Source: Escherichia phage BEU51. Taken from it: a DNA stretch of 48,949 nt. Both the position numbers and the translations under genes were made by a program. The stretch is from sequence record OM632672.1; one strand, given 5' to 3'. Positions 4,083 to 34,359 of this stretch are shown here, piece after piece. The stretch's first letter is position 1, and every line of letters begins with the position of its first letter. Under the pieces are notes generated by a model. It made no database searches and was not told where the DNA came from. It saw only the letters and a list, made by a program, of their open reading frames with translations.

Positions 4083-4520
4083 ATGTCATATGAAATCGTA
4101 AAACATTGGACTTCTAAGGCTGGGCTGAAGGCATGGGTATTGCTGGTAAATGGTGGTAGTCATCATTGTGGTTACGTAGAAATACCAGAAGCATTACTGG
4201 ATAAAAACTTCTATGACTATATCTGTGATGATGAAGAAACACTTCATATTGCAGTACATGGTGGAGTTACCTATCAAGGTGTCCCTCAGTGGGCTGATGG
4301 GATTAAAGTCATAGGTTATGACTGTGCTCATGCAGGGGATAAACTGAAATGTCCTAAACAATTCATCGGCTCTCTTAGGGAGAAACTCTATGAGGATTCT
4401 TATGGAGTATGGCGAGATGAAGAATACTGCATCAATGAATGTGAAAGCATGGCAGACCAGTTAATTAACCTGATACCAAAATTAGGGTTTAACAATGAAA
4501 TTCAGAACAGTAATGGTTAA
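4083..4520 (+). CDS. hypothetical protein (145 aa) with conserved His/Cys/Asp pattern
   Basis: ORF from track; HHCGYVEI, HGGVTY and GYDCAHAGD suggest a metal- or nucleotide-binding fold, family not identified. Confidence 0.55.
   Translation: MSYEIVKHWTSKAGLKAWVLLVNGGSHHCGYVEIPEALLDKNFYDYICDDEETLHIAVHGGVTYQGVPQWADGIKVIGYDCAHAGDKLKCPKQFIGSLREKLYEDSYGVWRDEEYCINECESMADQLINLIPKLGFNNEIQNSNG
4461..4468 (+). promoter_or_regulatory. TTAATTAA palindrome upstream of a gene start
   Basis: Exact 8-bp palindrome 26 nt before the ATG at 4495. Confidence 0.3.
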
Positions 4521-4692
4521 TGCTCTTGATACCAGGGGTAATGAAATCATTAGCTATAAAGTGCAAGGCTTTAAATGGTTCAAATGGAAAACATTAACTA
4601 GCTTTAAAGAATTTGAGAAAGATAAAGCTATTAAGTTAACCAAGAAATTGAACCAACGTAAGAAGATTAAATTAGTTACTGTAATTAAATAA
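4495..4692 (+). CDS. hypothetical small protein (65 aa)
   Basis: ORF from track, overlaps the previous stop by 26 nt; basic, Lys-rich. Confidence 0.4.
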   Translation: MKFRTVMVNALDTRGNEIISYKVQGFKWFKWKTLTSFKEFEKDKAIKLTKKLNQRKKIKLVTVIK

Positions 4693-4702
4693 GGATAAGG
4701 TA

Positions 4703-4861
4703 ATGCGTAAATCACTAATCATGGGAACCAAAGAAGACGTTGCTAAGATGAAAGCTAAACGTCAGATGAATAAAGCAGTAACGTTTGCAGAACGTTATAG
4801 TACGTCTGAACCAGTACGTCGTATTGTTACTTTCAACCATCCAGCTATTAAGGGTATGTAA
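4703..4861 (+). CDS. hypothetical small protein (52 aa, below track cutoff)
   Basis: ATG at 4703 preceded by AAGGATAAGG; stop overlaps the next start (TAATG at 4859-4863). Confidence 0.45.
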   Translation: MRKSLIMGTKEDVAKMKAKRQMNKAVTFAERYSTSEPVRRIVTFNHPAIKGM

Positions 4862-5070
4862 TGCAAACTAAGGATAAGAAAGACTTAGAACGTCTTCTCC
4901 GTGTATATGGTGATTATGCATTGTTAGCAGAGATAACTAATATTATTGAAGAAGACTGCCGTAATGGTTATGCCAATAACCCACAAGCAATAATTCATCG
5001 TGATGCAGTAGTGCTTAGAGAAGCAGTCAGTAAGATGCAAGCATTACACCCATTAAGACAACGAGCATAA
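4861..5070 (+). CDS. hypothetical protein (69 aa)
   Basis: ORF from track, start coupled to the upstream stop. Confidence 0.5.
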   Translation: MQTKDKKDLERLLRVYGDYALLAEITNIIEEDCRNGYANNPQAIIHRDAVVLREAVSKMQALHPLRQRA

Positions 5071-5072
5071 AT

Positions 5073-5106
5073 AGGAGGGGGCTACTAAGCCCTCTTCTTA
5101 TTTTTA
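5073..5106 (+). terminator. rho-independent terminator
   Basis: AGGAGGGGGCT-ACTA-AGCCCTCTTCT hairpin (11 bp, two G-T pairs) followed by TATTTTTAT. Confidence 0.6.
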
Positions 5107-5143
5107 TCGTGGTTATTAAGCAACTATCTTAGAGGAAGGAATA

Positions 5144-5359
5144 ATGGAACAGTTAAACTACGGTTATAAGATTAAACGCAATCAAGTAAGAGGTTCTTGG
5201 TTATTTCTCGTTTATGGCAAGCCAATCTATGAATTACATCGTGGAGAGAAATCCAAGACCTATTACGTAACTCATATTGCTACAGGAAAGACTCCTGCAT
5301 GTGCAGGATTGCTTCGTGATGCAATTATGAAAGCATGTATGTTAGAAGGACTTCTATGA
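5144..5359 (+). CDS. hypothetical protein (71 aa)
   Basis: ATG at 5144 preceded by GAGGAAGGA. Confidence 0.5.
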   Translation: MEQLNYGYKIKRNQVRGSWLFLVYGKPIYELHRGEKSKTYYVTHIATGKTPACAGLLRDAIMKACMLEGLL

Positions 5360-5670
5360 ACCAAATCATTGCTATCCCACAGCATAAAGCTCGTATTGCT
5401 GACAGGAATATTCGTATTCATTATCCAATGCCTTTGAGCAATCCATTCCAGAAAAATGAGAGAACCACGGATGAAGATATAGCAGCAGCTTATGAGGCAT
5501 ATCTTCGTAACCGTTTGGTAAGCGGTGACAAGCTCATTACGGCTGAAATGGAACGAATTGCTAAATTCATTATGGATGCTACTGACAAACCAGTTGGCCT
5601 CATTGGTAATGAACTGGAAGTGAATGTAATCCGTAAGATTATTATGGAGGCTCTTAATGGGAATCAGTGA
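5356..5670 (+). CDS. hypothetical protein (104 aa)
   Basis: ATG at 5356 overlaps the upstream stop (ATGA); same frame as track ORF 5335..5670. Confidence 0.5.
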   Translation: MNQIIAIPQHKARIADRNIRIHYPMPLSNPFQKNERTTDEDIAAAYEAYLRNRLVSGDKLITAEMERIAKFIMDATDKPVGLIGNELEVNVIRKIIMEALNGNQ

Positions 5671-5833
5671 ATCCCAGGCTATGGCTATTAAACAGTTAGC
5701 CTTCAACTGCCTTAGTGCTATGAAGGCATTTAATGAAGCAAAAACTTTCCCTGACCAGAATAAAGCTCGTATTCGACTTTATCAGTCTAAGAAAGATTTT
5801 GAAGAATATCTGGAAAGTATTACGGTGAAATAA
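5657..5833 (+). CDS. hypothetical small protein (58 aa, below track cutoff)
   Basis: ATG at 5657 to TAA at 5831-5833, stop overlapping the next ATG; fills an otherwise unexplained 160-nt gap. Confidence 0.4.
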   Translation: MGISESQAMAIKQLAFNCLSAMKAFNEAKTFPDQNKARIRLYQSKKDFEEYLESITVK

Positions 5834-6153
5834 TGAAAACAATATTAATTGTTCATGATGCTGATTTTAATGATGTTGATAAAATGATGCGTAATATTGA
5901 TTATGTAGCTCAGACAACTCCAGCATTTAAAGAAGAATTTACTCTATATTGTGATGCTAATTCACCACTAGTTCCCATTCTGAAAGAAGCCAGTTTACCC
6001 TTCTCTACAGATAATTTCCCTGAAGAACCTGATTATGTAATTTCATTTATTTATGACTTACATGATGGCTCAGAACCAAGTGAATTGGCTATGAGTCAAT
6101 GGAAATCCAGAAGACCTGTATATGCATTTCAGGTAGTTAAATCAAGGAGTTAA
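5833..6153 (+). CDS. hypothetical acidic protein (106 aa)
   Basis: ORF from track. Confidence 0.55.
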   Translation: MKTILIVHDADFNDVDKMMRNIDYVAQTTPAFKEEFTLYCDANSPLVPILKEASLPFSTDNFPEEPDYVISFIYDLHDGSEPSELAMSQWKSRRPVYAFQVVKSRS

Positions 6154-6155
6154 CT

Positions 6156-33450: not shown

Positions 33451-33530
33451 TATTAGTGAACACACTATGGAACCTCCCAGCTTCCTCCAGATGTACGGCA
33501 ATACATTAGCTGGTAGTGTGTTCACTGATA
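33451..33530 (+). repeat. long imperfect hairpin (17-bp outer stem plus inner stems)
   Basis: TATTAGTGAACACACTA pairs with TAGTGTGTTCACTGATA (one G-T pair); inner stem CCAGCT/AGCTGG; apical ATGTA-CGGCAA-TACAT; begins 8 nt after tRNA-Thr. Confidence 0.6.
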
Positions 33531-33609
33531 GGTTGTACTATCACAGTCCAGACAATATCTGCGTGACTTAAAAAACAGATGGAGCCAGGTGGAATCCCTG
33601 GCAACTAAT

Positions 33610-33675
33610 TCCGGTGTAGGTACTAGTGTCGTGCACGGCATGAGTGTTCTGGTTCGAGTCCAGACGCCGGAACCA
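33610..33675 (+). other. tRNA-like remnant (acceptor stem + T-arm + CCA, too short for a canonical tRNA)
   Basis: TCCGGTG pairs with CGCCGGA; T-arm TCTGG-TTCGAGT-CCAGA and CCA present, but only 29 nt lie between position 9 and the T-stem. Confidence 0.35.
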
Positions 33676-33678
33676 ATT

Positions 33679-33781
33679 CGTAAGAACTCTTATTTTGGTT
33701 ACCGCAAAAGAAGTGAAAAATGTTGTGGAAAACTACTTCCCAATTAGGTTCGAATCCTAAACCAGAGTAAGAGTTCTTTCG
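33679..33781 (+). other. 14-bp stem enclosing a 75-nt tRNA-like element
   Basis: CGTAAGAACTCTTA pairs with TAAGAGTTCTTTCG (one mismatch); interior 33693-33767 has acceptor-like TTTTGGT/ACCAGAG and a perfect T-arm TTAGG-TTCGAAT-CCTAA but no foldable D or anticodon arm and no CCA. Confidence 0.4.
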
Positions 33782-33794
33782 AATTGAAGATTTA

Positions 33795-33871
33795 CAGGAT
33801 ATAGCTCAGTTTGGTAGAGCGTCTGCTTTGGGAGCAGAATGTCGTAGGTTCGAATCCTGCTATCCTGACCA
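33795..33871 (+). tRNA. tRNA-Pro (anticodon TGG)
   Basis: Acceptor CAGGATA/TATCCTG, D-arm GCTC/GAGC, anticodon stem TCTGC/GCAGA with loop TTTGGGA, T-arm GTAGG-TTCGAAT-CCTGC, encoded CCA. Confidence 0.85.
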
Positions 33872-33873
33872 AA

Positions 33874-33957
33874 TTAGTGCTCTGGTATATTACTTTTAAC
33901 CCCTAGGTTATGCCACAGTAATACAACAGATTGGGTCATCTGAAACCAGAGCACTAA
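33874..33957 (+). repeat. long hairpin (13-bp perfect outer stem)
   Basis: TTAGTGCTCTGGT pairs with ACCAGAGCACTAA; interior has TATTAC/GTAATA and apical CAGAT-TGGGTC-ATCTG; begins 2 nt after tRNA-Pro. Confidence 0.6.
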
Positions 33958-34319
33958 CCTAATGTGTGGGATGTAACAGTTAAATCCAGTTGCCGGAAGT
34001 GCAATTCTAGATACGCTGCCAATGCGTGAACGGTAAGGCTGTACAGGACTCGGACTCCCATCCCACCTCCTTATTTGAACCAGGTATGAACGGCTTACTT
34101 AGTATTAACTGCATAGGGGTATGTTAGGGATACTTAGGTGGTAAGCAGTTGGTAAGAATCCAACATGGTTCATTCCCTATTAGCAGTAACATAGTCCTGA
34201 GTACGTGTGCTCTAAAGACAATATTGGCGAGACAGTCCAATAGCTGCTAAATTAAATTCGTCCATTCCTCTTGGATGTGTAGCGAGTGAAGGTAACACTT
34301 AAAAATCCATGACCCACAG

Positions 34320-34350
34320 AAGCCTCCGGTTAATCCTGGAGGCTTTTTTA
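34320..34350 (+). terminator. rho-independent terminator closing the tRNA / noncoding region
   Basis: AGCCTCC-GGTTAATCCT-GGAGGCT hairpin followed by TTTTTTATTT. Confidence 0.7.
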
Positions 34351-34351
34351 T

Positions 34352-34359
34352 TTAATTAA
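34352..34359 (+). promoter_or_regulatory. TTAATTAA palindrome upstream of a gene start
   Basis: Exact 8-bp palindrome 13 nt before the ATG at 34373, directly after the terminator T-tract. Confidence 0.3.

Follow-up and report, generated by a model that had tools for sequence, protein, structure and literature searches.

Upstream of gene starts in an N4-like coliphage, the palindrome TTAATTAA is likelier to be a by-product of A/T-rich junctions between genes than a control site in its own right

The window analyzed here is a stretch of 48,949 nucleotides from Escherichia phage BEU51 (OM632672.1), a 98%-identical relative of coliphage N4. We scanned it exhaustively for TTAATTAA, an 8-letter palindrome that is its own reverse complement and so has the symmetry of palindromic operators. 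The scan returned exactly the five plus-strand copies that an earlier note on this DNA had listed, at 4461, 15367, 17982, 31029 and 34352. The N4 genome has two extra copies on the other strand, located at 54322 and 57460 within its leftward late block; one of the two sits 12 nt inside gp60. Since wild isolates from several countries conserve the copies, these are natural and not cloning scars.

The first copy (4461..4468, plus strand) falls within gp4 (4083-4520) and uses the one frame free of stops, encoding Leu-Ile-Asn (codons 127-129 of 145). It is 26 nt ahead of the ATG of gp5, a start codon that overlaps the 3' end of gp4. The orthologous gp4 codons of relatives read L-I-D (TTAATTGAT), L-M-A or I-S-E, and because they differ this copy is a coding coincidence. 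The second copy (15367..15374, plus strand) consists of T, the TAA stop of the dCTP deaminase gene gp26, T and a further TAA, and runs directly into the extended Shine-Dalgarno sequence of gp27, TAAGGAAAT (gp27 ATG at 15384). Relatives with a gp27 ortholog have AAG-TAA-GGAAAtctc-ATG at this site, so N4 carries an extra tandem TTAA here; the RNA around the gp27 ribosome-binding site is less structured than its shuffles (z=+1.27). The third copy (17982..17989, plus strand) is T, the TAA stop of gp32 and TTAA. Next comes TAATTTACTGGAG, the ATTTA-n-CTGGAG block that is conserved ahead of rIIA, and across genera this ATTTA(n)CTGGAGAG block is conserved whereas TTAATTAA is not.

The fourth and fifth copies are the only purely intergenic ones in the window, and they share ATTTAATTAA before the Shine-Dalgarno sequence. 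The fourth (31029..31036, plus strand) lies between gp44, which ends at 31004, and the SSB gene gp45 (ATG 31050), within cATTAATTTAATTAAGTAGGAAAT, which holds a tandem TTAAT-TTAAT, and stands 3 nt ahead of the Shine-Dalgarno sequence. The SSB leader is long, A/U-rich and unstructured (fold z=+1.07 vs shuffles). Among 28 G7C-like loci the upstream block CTGGTTGTTAATCA is conserved, with cTTATTAGG in place of TTAATTAA, and the word is absent from the KP8 SSB junction too. The fifth copy (34352..34359, plus strand) lies 4 nt before the gp48 Shine-Dalgarno sequence (ATG 34373), and a strong intrinsic terminator with a 12-bp stem and a T tract (34318..34351, plus strand; z=-3.15) has its tail running into it. 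The sequence TTAATTAAATAA puts TAA in all three frames at this site; relatives keep CTTTTTTATTT here and continue with GAAc or GAAT rather than AATTAA. As for the two N4 copies, that at 54322 reads NNT-TAA-TTAA at a real stop codon, like the second and third window copies, and that at 57460 combines the gp60 codons L-I-K with the gp61 stop. Two further cases of L-I-K codons meeting a stop are the G7C-like terminase overlap and the tail of the KP8 helicase.

Counted in copy order, 26, 9, 20, 13 and 13 nt separate the word from the plus-strand start that comes next, in agreement with the 9-26 nt previously claimed. The GTG at 18010 is an artefact of the re-ordered record; in N4 and other members of the genus the gene after the 17982 copy is rIIA, with its ATG 21 nt past the word. 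The purine-rich stretches seen after three copies proved to be Shine-Dalgarno sequences, and the gap from the word to the Shine-Dalgarno sequence is 0 nt at 15367, 3 at 31029, 4 at 34352, 9 at 17982 and 17 at 4461. With four of the five copies ending 0-9 nt 5' of a Shine-Dalgarno sequence, the proposed link to translation initiation therefore holds, in a generic sense only.

To quantify the positional bias, we defined the upstream zone as the 40 nt before each start (n=53 in the window, n=72 in N4), and for the window took the family-wise P as the probability of any 8-mer reaching 5. TTAATTAA was the most recurrent 8-mer in the window zones, occurring in 5 of the 53 against ~0.26 expected, and P was 0.003 with per-zone dinucleotide shuffles, 0.001 with column permutation and 0.0075-0.045 with zone-trained order-2/3 Markov models. 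In the full N4 genome the word occupied 6 of the 72 zones (family-wise P given as <0.001 and as <=0.0025). By these tests the bias toward positions upstream of starts is statistically real in both the window and N4. The whole-window total is not clearly over chance (5 vs 1.85 expected, with 5 of 100 shuffles reaching 5), and one-mismatch variants are at chance (45 vs 43.6 expected) and lie mostly within genes. TTAATTAA/TAATTAA is the A/T-only word most enriched upstream of starts. The N4 zones hold about three times as many period-4 tandem repeats as expected (30 vs 10.4), an excess that becomes mild without the TTAA family (about 18 vs 9-10), and TAA is the stop of 40 of the 55 window genes.

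The claim that no copy lies inside a gene body is wrong in detail, as the 4461 copy is within gp4 and the 15367 and 17982 copies hold the stops of gp26 and gp32. On either strand, two of the three frames of TTAATTAA contain TAA, and the single frame open to it in ORFs spells Leu-Ile-Lys/Asn. Synonymous-codon shuffles predicted ~1 internal coding copy (1.0-1.4; P(0)=0.32). Because of these stops and of the ~1.0 copy predicted, absence from gene bodies is nearly uninformative. Another A/T-only 8-mer containing a stop is TAAATAAT.

Comparison with the sister genera, the G7C-like and KP8-like phages, showed that none of the five orthologous sites, four junctions plus the gp4 codons, carries TTAATTAA there. 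No upstream-zone copy was found in PhAPEC5 and other G7C-like loci, the whole KP8 genome has a single copy, at the helicase tail, and the number of copies per kb is ~10 times that of sister genera of similar composition. The genera lacking the word at these sites keep gp1, gp2 and RNAPII; the RNAPII, gp2 and gp1 of G7C-like/KP8-like phages are 65-75% identical, with gp1 homologs at 60-88%. They also keep other signals, namely CTGGTTGTTAATCA at SSB, ATTTA-n-CTGGAGAG at rIIA and the terminator tail at gp48, and the top junction words of G7C-like and KP8 phages are Shine-Dalgarno-like. N4 differs from the outgroups by tandem units, with TAA-TTAA-GGAAAT against TAAGGAAAT and TTAAT-TTAAT against TTATTA.

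The core 7-mer TAATTAA at 4682..4688 (plus strand) occupies the last codons of gp5, 14 nt ahead of the gp6 ATG, and is followed by a tandem ATAAGG-ATAAGG; it is not conserved upstream of gp6 orthologs. A second core 7-mer (7118..7124, plus strand) lies upstream of gp15, just 3' of a hairpin (GCTGC-TCC-GCAGC) and TTTTGG. We infer that this hairpin is the vRNAP early promoter P3, and the 7-mer is semi-conserved in relatives as TAATTAA, TTATTAA or TATTTAA. The one-mismatch copy TTAATTAG (15681..15688, plus strand) directly follows the T-tail of a terminator and precedes the gp28 ATG by 10 nt. No flanking consensus beyond the 8-mer was found among the seven N4 copies, and a vRNAP-type hairpin (5-7 bp stem, 3-nt loop) flanks none of the five exact window copies, adjoining only the 7118 7-mer. 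No convincing sigma-70 promoter (-35/-10, 16-18 nt spacing) overlaps any copy; one weak match (9/12) at 17966-17993 uses AATAAT, and sigma-70-like sites are depleted in this block (25 vs 49.8 and 2 vs 10.5). One of ~12 plus-strand terminators, that before 34352, is followed by exact TTAATTAA and a second by the one-mismatch copy at 15681, and the other ~10 lead into different sequences. The top spacer-versus-coding 7-mer is TTTAATT, present in four spacers (gp3, gp28, SSB and gp48), three of which come after terminators, and in none of the 29.6 kb of coding sequence.

Because the contexts of its copies are unrelated and the copies are missing from sister phages, we think TTAATTAA likelier to have come about as a by-product of the A/T-rich sequence at gene junctions than to be a control site of its own. 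The particular account that we tentatively favor, giving it somewhat less than an even chance, is that slippage generated (TTAA)n in stop-laden, A/U-rich linkers ahead of Shine-Dalgarno sequences. TTAATTAA, the shortest perfect (TTAA)n, would have arisen and persisted in the short intergenic linkers of N4, with no single factor reading it. Its TAA in two of three frames bars it from ORFs, and it would survive at gene ends, in spacers and in the permitted frame. The stretch from stop to Shine-Dalgarno sequence is A/U-rich and unstructured in the contexts described above, presumably through selection, and genes ending in TAA together with such a linker would therefore favor T-TAA-TTAA and TAA-GGA arrangements. 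Replication slippage duplicating TTAA or TTAAT may then have made the exact word several times in the stem lineage of the N4 genus, as suggested by the outgroup comparison and the period-4 repeat excess. Any function would be a generic linker role, halting translation in two or more frames and leaving the following ribosome-binding site accessible to ribosomal protein S1 and the 30S subunit, and the 8-mer itself would not be a recognition site.

In E. coli and phage, A/U-rich unstructured regions 5' of Shine-Dalgarno sequences are landing sites of ribosomal protein S1. The copies resemble these in being pure A/U, in adjoining Shine-Dalgarno sequences and, for the gp27 and SSB leaders, in folding less well than shuffles. 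S1 landing sites, however, are defined by composition and not by an exact word, and they leave unexplained the recurrence of an exact palindrome and its absence in sister phages of the same host. The periodic (TTAA)n is also shared with the engineered three-frame stop linker TTAATTAATTAA and the PacI site TTAATTAA, and as in the stop linker TAA falls in successive frames on both strands, the sequence at 34352 closing all three; unlike these, the phage copies are natural, and selection for multi-frame stops is putative. The heterogeneous contexts (codons, stops, intergenic) and the chance-level one-mismatch variants favor the junction by-product. Against it, the strong enrichment survives nulls that preserve composition, position and order-3 statistics, and a generic architecture should act equally in sister genera of similar A+T and the same host. 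Since the G7C-like loci have no upstream-zone copy and KP8 has only the one at the helicase tail, something peculiar to the N4 lineage is needed, for which slippage offers an inferred history, and four independent gains of an exact palindrome could equally reflect a selected, recognized site.

A possible but doubtful alternative is that some copies, those at rIIA, SSB and gp48, are part of RNAPII middle promoters, the A/T word and adjacent TTTA forming an easily melted core, so that transcription would begin within or beside the word and give a 10-25 nt leader with the Shine-Dalgarno sequence. N4 RNAPII middle promoters were reportedly described by Abravaya & Rothman-Denes in 1990, and their core, which we take to be (t/a)TTTA(a/t), would fit these three sites. 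The three copies overlap or abut 9-mers that are all A/T or 8/9 A/T and contain TTTA; the top rank of TTAATTAA/TAATTAA among A/T-only words before starts, the ATTTAATTAA shared by both intergenic copies, the leading spacer 7-mer TTTAATT and the ATTTA conserved across genera upstream of rIIA point the same way. The minimal N4 RNAPII promoter spans -7 to +2 and is highly A/T-enriched, its transcripts are limited to the left genome half, the use of middle promoters in vivo depends on gp1, and the determinants of these promoters were still work in progress in a 2015 review (PMC4496689). The word is likewise short, A/T-rich and about as long as that element, and the five window copies lie on the rightward strand in the left genome half. 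N4 RNAPII uses sequence-specific consensus motifs, and middle promoters differ between N4 and LUZ7 (PMC9163698), so lineage specificity is not disqualifying.

Several observations weigh against middle promoters, and against the suggestion of the earlier note that the word is specific to the middle gene class. The 4461 and 15367 copies are mid-operon and G/C-rich on both sides (cagaccag before and cc after; cagctcg before and gg after), the former within gp4 in the early left-end block, and the N4 copies at 54322 and 57460 lie at late-gene junctions in the leftward block. The exact word follows only one of ~12 plus-strand terminators, leaving most terminator-delimited units without it at their head, and therefore cannot be a general middle promoter. 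G7C-like/KP8-like phages have neither TTAATTAA nor any shared replacement at the same junctions, and WTTTAW is only about twofold enriched in spacers, mainly via terminator tails. Our literature search found no modern N4 transcription start site dataset.

A broader reading, in our estimate also possible but not probable, holds TTAATTAA to be a putative cis-element of the N4 genus gained repeatedly, either as the core of an RNAPII-promoter subclass or as an RNA/DNA operator. As a promoter it might be a melt-prone core directly upstream of the rIIA, SSB, gp48 and perhaps gp27 ribosome-binding sites; as an operator it might be bound by an N4-specific early protein or by N4SSB, both candidates. 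A narrower proposal, which appears quite unlikely, is that a dimeric or cooperative protein found only in the N4 genus binds the palindrome, or UUAAUUAA in RNA. Such a protein might be a translational repressor or an autoregulator that acts on A/U-rich leaders, with N4SSB on its own leader the obvious candidate. T4 RegA and gp32 act in this way, and their operators are A/U-rich leader sequences bound by the phage protein. The likeness, A/U-rich sequence next to several phage gene starts including that of the SSB gene, is pure analogy, as this analysis identified neither a binding protein nor a pseudoknot or cooperative-binding tract. The perfect 8-bp symmetry, the robust and N4-genus-specific enrichment, the closeness to Shine-Dalgarno sequences and the copy in the long unstructured SSB leader would suit such a site. 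Set against them are the irregular flanks and spacing (9-26 nt to the start, 0-17 nt to the Shine-Dalgarno sequence), the lack of overall enrichment of degenerate copies, the absence of a common class among the genes served and the conservation of gp1, the only candidate partner tested, in genera without the word. A statistical fluke, a low-complexity A/T word recurring by chance and spotted by repeat scanning, fits the non-significant genome-wide count, the window P of only 0.045 under the strictest null (order-3 Markov, zone-trained), the coding coincidence of at least one zone copy (4461) and a family-wise P that covers 8-mers, one word length, but is improbable given family-wise P of 0.001-0.003 (window) and <=0.0025 (full N4) under four different nulls and the excess of copies per kb over sister genera of like composition.

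N4 is the model phage for a transcription programme with three polymerases. If TTAATTAA marks real start sites, it would provide a simple sequence handle on a subset of RNAPII promoters and illustrate how promoters turn over between genera whose polymerases are 65-75% identical; a true cis-element would imply rapid turnover of promoter or operator words among sister genera that share polymerase and cofactors. If the word is instead a junction by-product, it carries a caution, as a word that has stops in two frames of each strand will always seem confined between genes, and slippage in A/T-rich linkers can yield statistically striking, lineage-specific motifs without any reader.

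A scan of the whole window found exactly five copies of the 8-bp palindrome TTAATTAA, a doubled TTAA, on the plus strand at 4461, 15367, 17982, 31029 and 34352, and these lie 26, 9, 20, 13 and 13 nt before the next plus-strand start, as the earlier note had reported. Their abundance is weak evidence (five copies versus 1.85 expected, with 5 of 100 dinucleotide shuffles reaching five), and one-mismatch variants occur at chance level (45 versus 43.6), the majority within genes. The clustering ahead of gene starts is real. Upstream zones were set as the 40 nt preceding each annotated start and cover 4.3% of the window; among them TTAATTAA was the most recurrent 8-mer, found in 5 of 53 zones versus about 0.26 expected. 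Some 8-mer would reach five zones with a probability of 0.003 by per-zone dinucleotide shuffles, 0.001 by column permutation, and 0.0075-0.045 under order-2/3 Markov models fitted to the zones themselves. The whole N4 genome carries seven copies, six of them in upstream zones (family-wise P<=0.0025). The observation is thus real but modest. That the word never falls inside a gene was inexact, as the copy at 4461 lies within gp4 and those at 15367 and 17982 include the TAA codons that end gp26 and gp32; it was also uninformative, as synonymous-codon shuffling predicted only about 1.0 internal copy (P(0)=0.32). TAA occurs in two of the three frames of TTAATTAA, on both strands.

The window is from an Enquatrovirus of the N4 species, with 98% identity to coliphage N4 (EF056009) and 100% identity to BEU42 and BEU44, two records without annotation, and its gene map was carried over from N4 by BLAST. 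In the record, rIIA has been moved to the very start (1-2526); next come the final 26 nt of N4 (to 2552), and N4 1-15459 follows these. At the native place of rIIA (17986-18011), gp32 is fused to rIIB, which is joined straight to the gp32-rIIA spacer, yielding a GTG 'start' at 18010. Since BEU44 also has rIIA at its own start, beside a different neighbour (a break within gp47), we rejected a biological translocation and regard the displacement as a cut-and-prepend artefact of record re-ordering. The gene that really follows the 17982 copy is rIIA; its ATG lies 21 nt past the word in N4 and in four further members of the genus. In N4 coordinates, the copies before rIIA, SSB and gp48 are at 15431, 30300 and 33611.

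Relative to N4, the gp39 DNA polymerase gene carries an insert of about 700 bp (24684-25385) with an ORF (24722-25336) for a 204-aa NUMOD4 + HNH_3 homing endonuclease (Pfam E=7e-5 and 8e-6). The same insert is annotated in VEc25 and AlfredRasser, and the AlfredRasser record gives the polymerase as a joined CDS, implying an intron; the PhAPEC5 polymerase gene also has an intron, and the insert is missing from N4, OLB145 and 3HA13. Four tRNA genes (33193-33868; Rfam scores 50-75 bits) occupy the 1.5 kb without ORFs that separates gp47 from gp48; they are annotated as Asn, Ser, Thr and Pro in relatives, and none is annotated in the original N4 record. With 80% identity to N4 versus 97-99% for adjoining genes, gp36 (20487-20948) is a local variable patch, and OLB145 has an additional TTAATTAA in this region (position 20674 of locus L103).

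When the seven N4 copies were aligned by the orientation of the downstream gene, nothing was common beyond the 8-mer, and the contexts were unrelated. The gp4 copy is read as in-frame codons (L-I-N); three copies sit at real stop codons as NNT-TAA-TTAA (gp26, gp32, and gp58 in the late region); and one forms codons L-I-K of gp60, 12 nt into that gene, and overlaps the stop of gp61. The two truly intergenic copies, before the SSB gene (N4SSB, gp45) and before gp48, both read ATTTAATTAA followed by a Shine-Dalgarno sequence, and the gp48 copy is directly 3' of an intrinsic terminator. The genes that follow the copies include early genes of the left end, genes of the middle replication block and leftward late genes, the late block being transcribed by the host RNA polymerase with N4SSB (PMC4496689). 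The word is therefore not middle-specific, and the discrete middle-class promoter or initiation element proposed in the earlier note is unsupported in that form. TTAATTAA behaves like an ordinary A/U-rich linker ahead of a Shine-Dalgarno sequence and partially resembles the known A/T-rich middle promoters of N4. It is neither a sigma-70 promoter nor a terminator, nor is it a hairpin promoter of vRNAP, the N4 early-promoter polymerase.

Three hairpins with a 3-nt loop are followed by TT(T/A)TGG, namely GTTGC-TTC-GCAAC TTATGG (about 2640-2660), GAAGC-TCC-GCTTC TTTTGG (3110-3130) and GCTGC-TCC-GCAGC TTTTGG (7095-7117, upstream of gp15); they agree with what has been published on the three early hairpin promoters of vRNAP, and the gp15 hairpin is kept in KP8-like and G7C-like loci (L027, L029, L031-L034, L092). 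Terminator-like hairpins exceed shuffles (28 versus 10.6 in 2500-20500; 9 versus 3.6 in 30000-35300). Sigma-70-like matches fall about 2-fold to 5-fold below shuffles (25 versus 49.8 and 2 versus 10.5 in the same regions), which would fit early/middle transcription independent of the host RNA polymerase.

We compared about 140 related loci and the completed genome of KP8, the nearest outgroup. TTAATTAA was missing from every orthologous site in these relatives, where the adjoining signals were kept. At the gp26/gp27 junction, N4 has CGT-TAA-TTAA-GGAAATATC-ATG and relatives have AAG-TAA-GGAAAtctc-ATG. Upstream of rIIA, N4 has the word then TAATTTACTGGAG, and relatives keep ATTTA-n-CTGGAGAG without the word; upstream of the SSB gene, CTGGTTGTTAATCA is followed in N4 by a TTAAT-TTAAT expansion and in 28 G7C-like loci by cTTATTAGG; upstream of gp48, the terminator tail is followed by AATTAA in N4 and by GAAc/GAAT in relatives. 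The gp4 codons, L-I-N in N4, are L-I-D, L-M-A or I-S-E in relatives. The G7C-like early/middle loci (313 kb, 57% A+T) contain 0.10 copies per 10 kb, versus about 1 per 10 kb in N4, with no copy in any upstream zone, and the single copy in the KP8 genome is made by helicase tail codons. The commonest junction words in G7C-like loci and KP8 are Shine-Dalgarno-like. Among six genomes within the genus all copies are invariant, and the flanks are equally so, which leaves that comparison without power; metagenome and IMG/VR scans yielded no relative between 61% and 98% SSB identity.

The CTGGTTGTTAATCA block (31006-31019, 3' of the gp44 stop and 5' of the SSB gene), common to N4 and the 28 G7C-like loci, persists while the remaining spacer differs (L004-L014, L123-L139). 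CTGGTT was considered there as a general second promoter block and rejected as a common Leu-Val coding hexamer. ATTTA-(n)-CTGGAGAG(TAAA), at 17990-18003 right before the rIIA start, is kept across three genera (L024-L034, L092) in which rIIA itself is about 40% identical. Words of this type, CTGGAGAG/CTGGAGAA, also stand ahead of gp24 and gp37 (12470-12488, 20975-20990), and the arrangement could be a shared promoter-plus-ribosome-binding-site module.

We tentatively favour, a little short of an even judgement, a composite and non-dedicated origin of the copies. Frame exclusion demonstrably keeps the word at gene ends. The contexts show TAA stops and, ahead of Shine-Dalgarno sequences, unstructured linkers rich in A/U, and both would favour TAA-rich A/T words; TAA is the stop codon of 40 of the 55 genes, and leaders are less well folded than shuffles. 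Small tandem duplications of TTAA or TTAAT may then have made the exact word several times, as suggested by the outgroup comparisons and by the N4 upstream zones, where period-4 repeats are in threefold excess (30 versus 10.4). A perfect tandem duplication, ATAAGG-ATAAGG in the gp6 ribosome-binding region (4689-4702), exemplifies the slippage-type repeats of N4 spacers. The weakness of the composite account is that the sister phages share the architecture but lack the word, so a lineage-specific history must be assumed.

The main rival, which we consider possible but rather unlikely, is that the rIIA, SSB and gp48 copies overlap genuine middle promoters of RNAPII, the N4 middle-gene RNA polymerase. 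The published core of these promoters is (t/a)TTTA(a/t), and each of the three copies falls within or next to an all-A/T 9-mer with TTTA; the strongest spacer-versus-coding 7-mer is TTTAATT, with four spacers and zero coding copies. RNAPII promoters have a minimal A/T-rich element from -7 to +2 (PMC4496689) and sequence-specific consensus motifs (PMC9163698). However, at 4461 and 15367 the word is flanked by G/C-rich sequence and lies mid-operon, it follows just one of about 12 plus-strand terminators, and two N4 copies are located at late genes. A promoter or operator word specific to the N4 genus is unlikely to a similar degree. A dedicated palindrome- or RNA-binding factor is improbable, and chance equally so.

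Other candidate promoter words were also profiled. TTTAATT lies in the spacers before gp3, gp28, SSB and gp48 (3655, 15680, 31028, 34351), in three of the four directly 3' of terminator T-tails, and is absent from 29.6 kb of plus-strand coding sequence despite two of its three frames being stop-free. For WTTTAW, the middle-promoter core given above, 20% of matches fall in 9.5% of the sequence, chiefly in terminator tails. TATCT (often aCTATCT or GTATCT) occurs 14-100 nt before eight starts, usually 3' of a terminator (2672, 3092, 3665, 5125, 10196, 11685, 20145, 20977), and GTATCTATAGGAGAG at 10195 resembles the T7 promoter core CTATAGGGAGA; as a T7-like core after terminators, TATCT/CTATCT is statistically weak, about twofold enriched with 12 of 63 copies in spacers. 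The PhAPEC5 record annotates terminators only and no promoters.

The gp1 protein (PF26891) was rejected as a lineage-specific partner, as it occurs in KP8-like, G7C-like and even Achromobacter phages. The sister phages lack the word yet keep gp2 (66-71% identity), both RNAPII subunits (65-75%) and gp1 (66-88%). On this sequence comparison, the word multiplied in the stem lineage of the N4 genus and does not track the known middle-transcription proteins.
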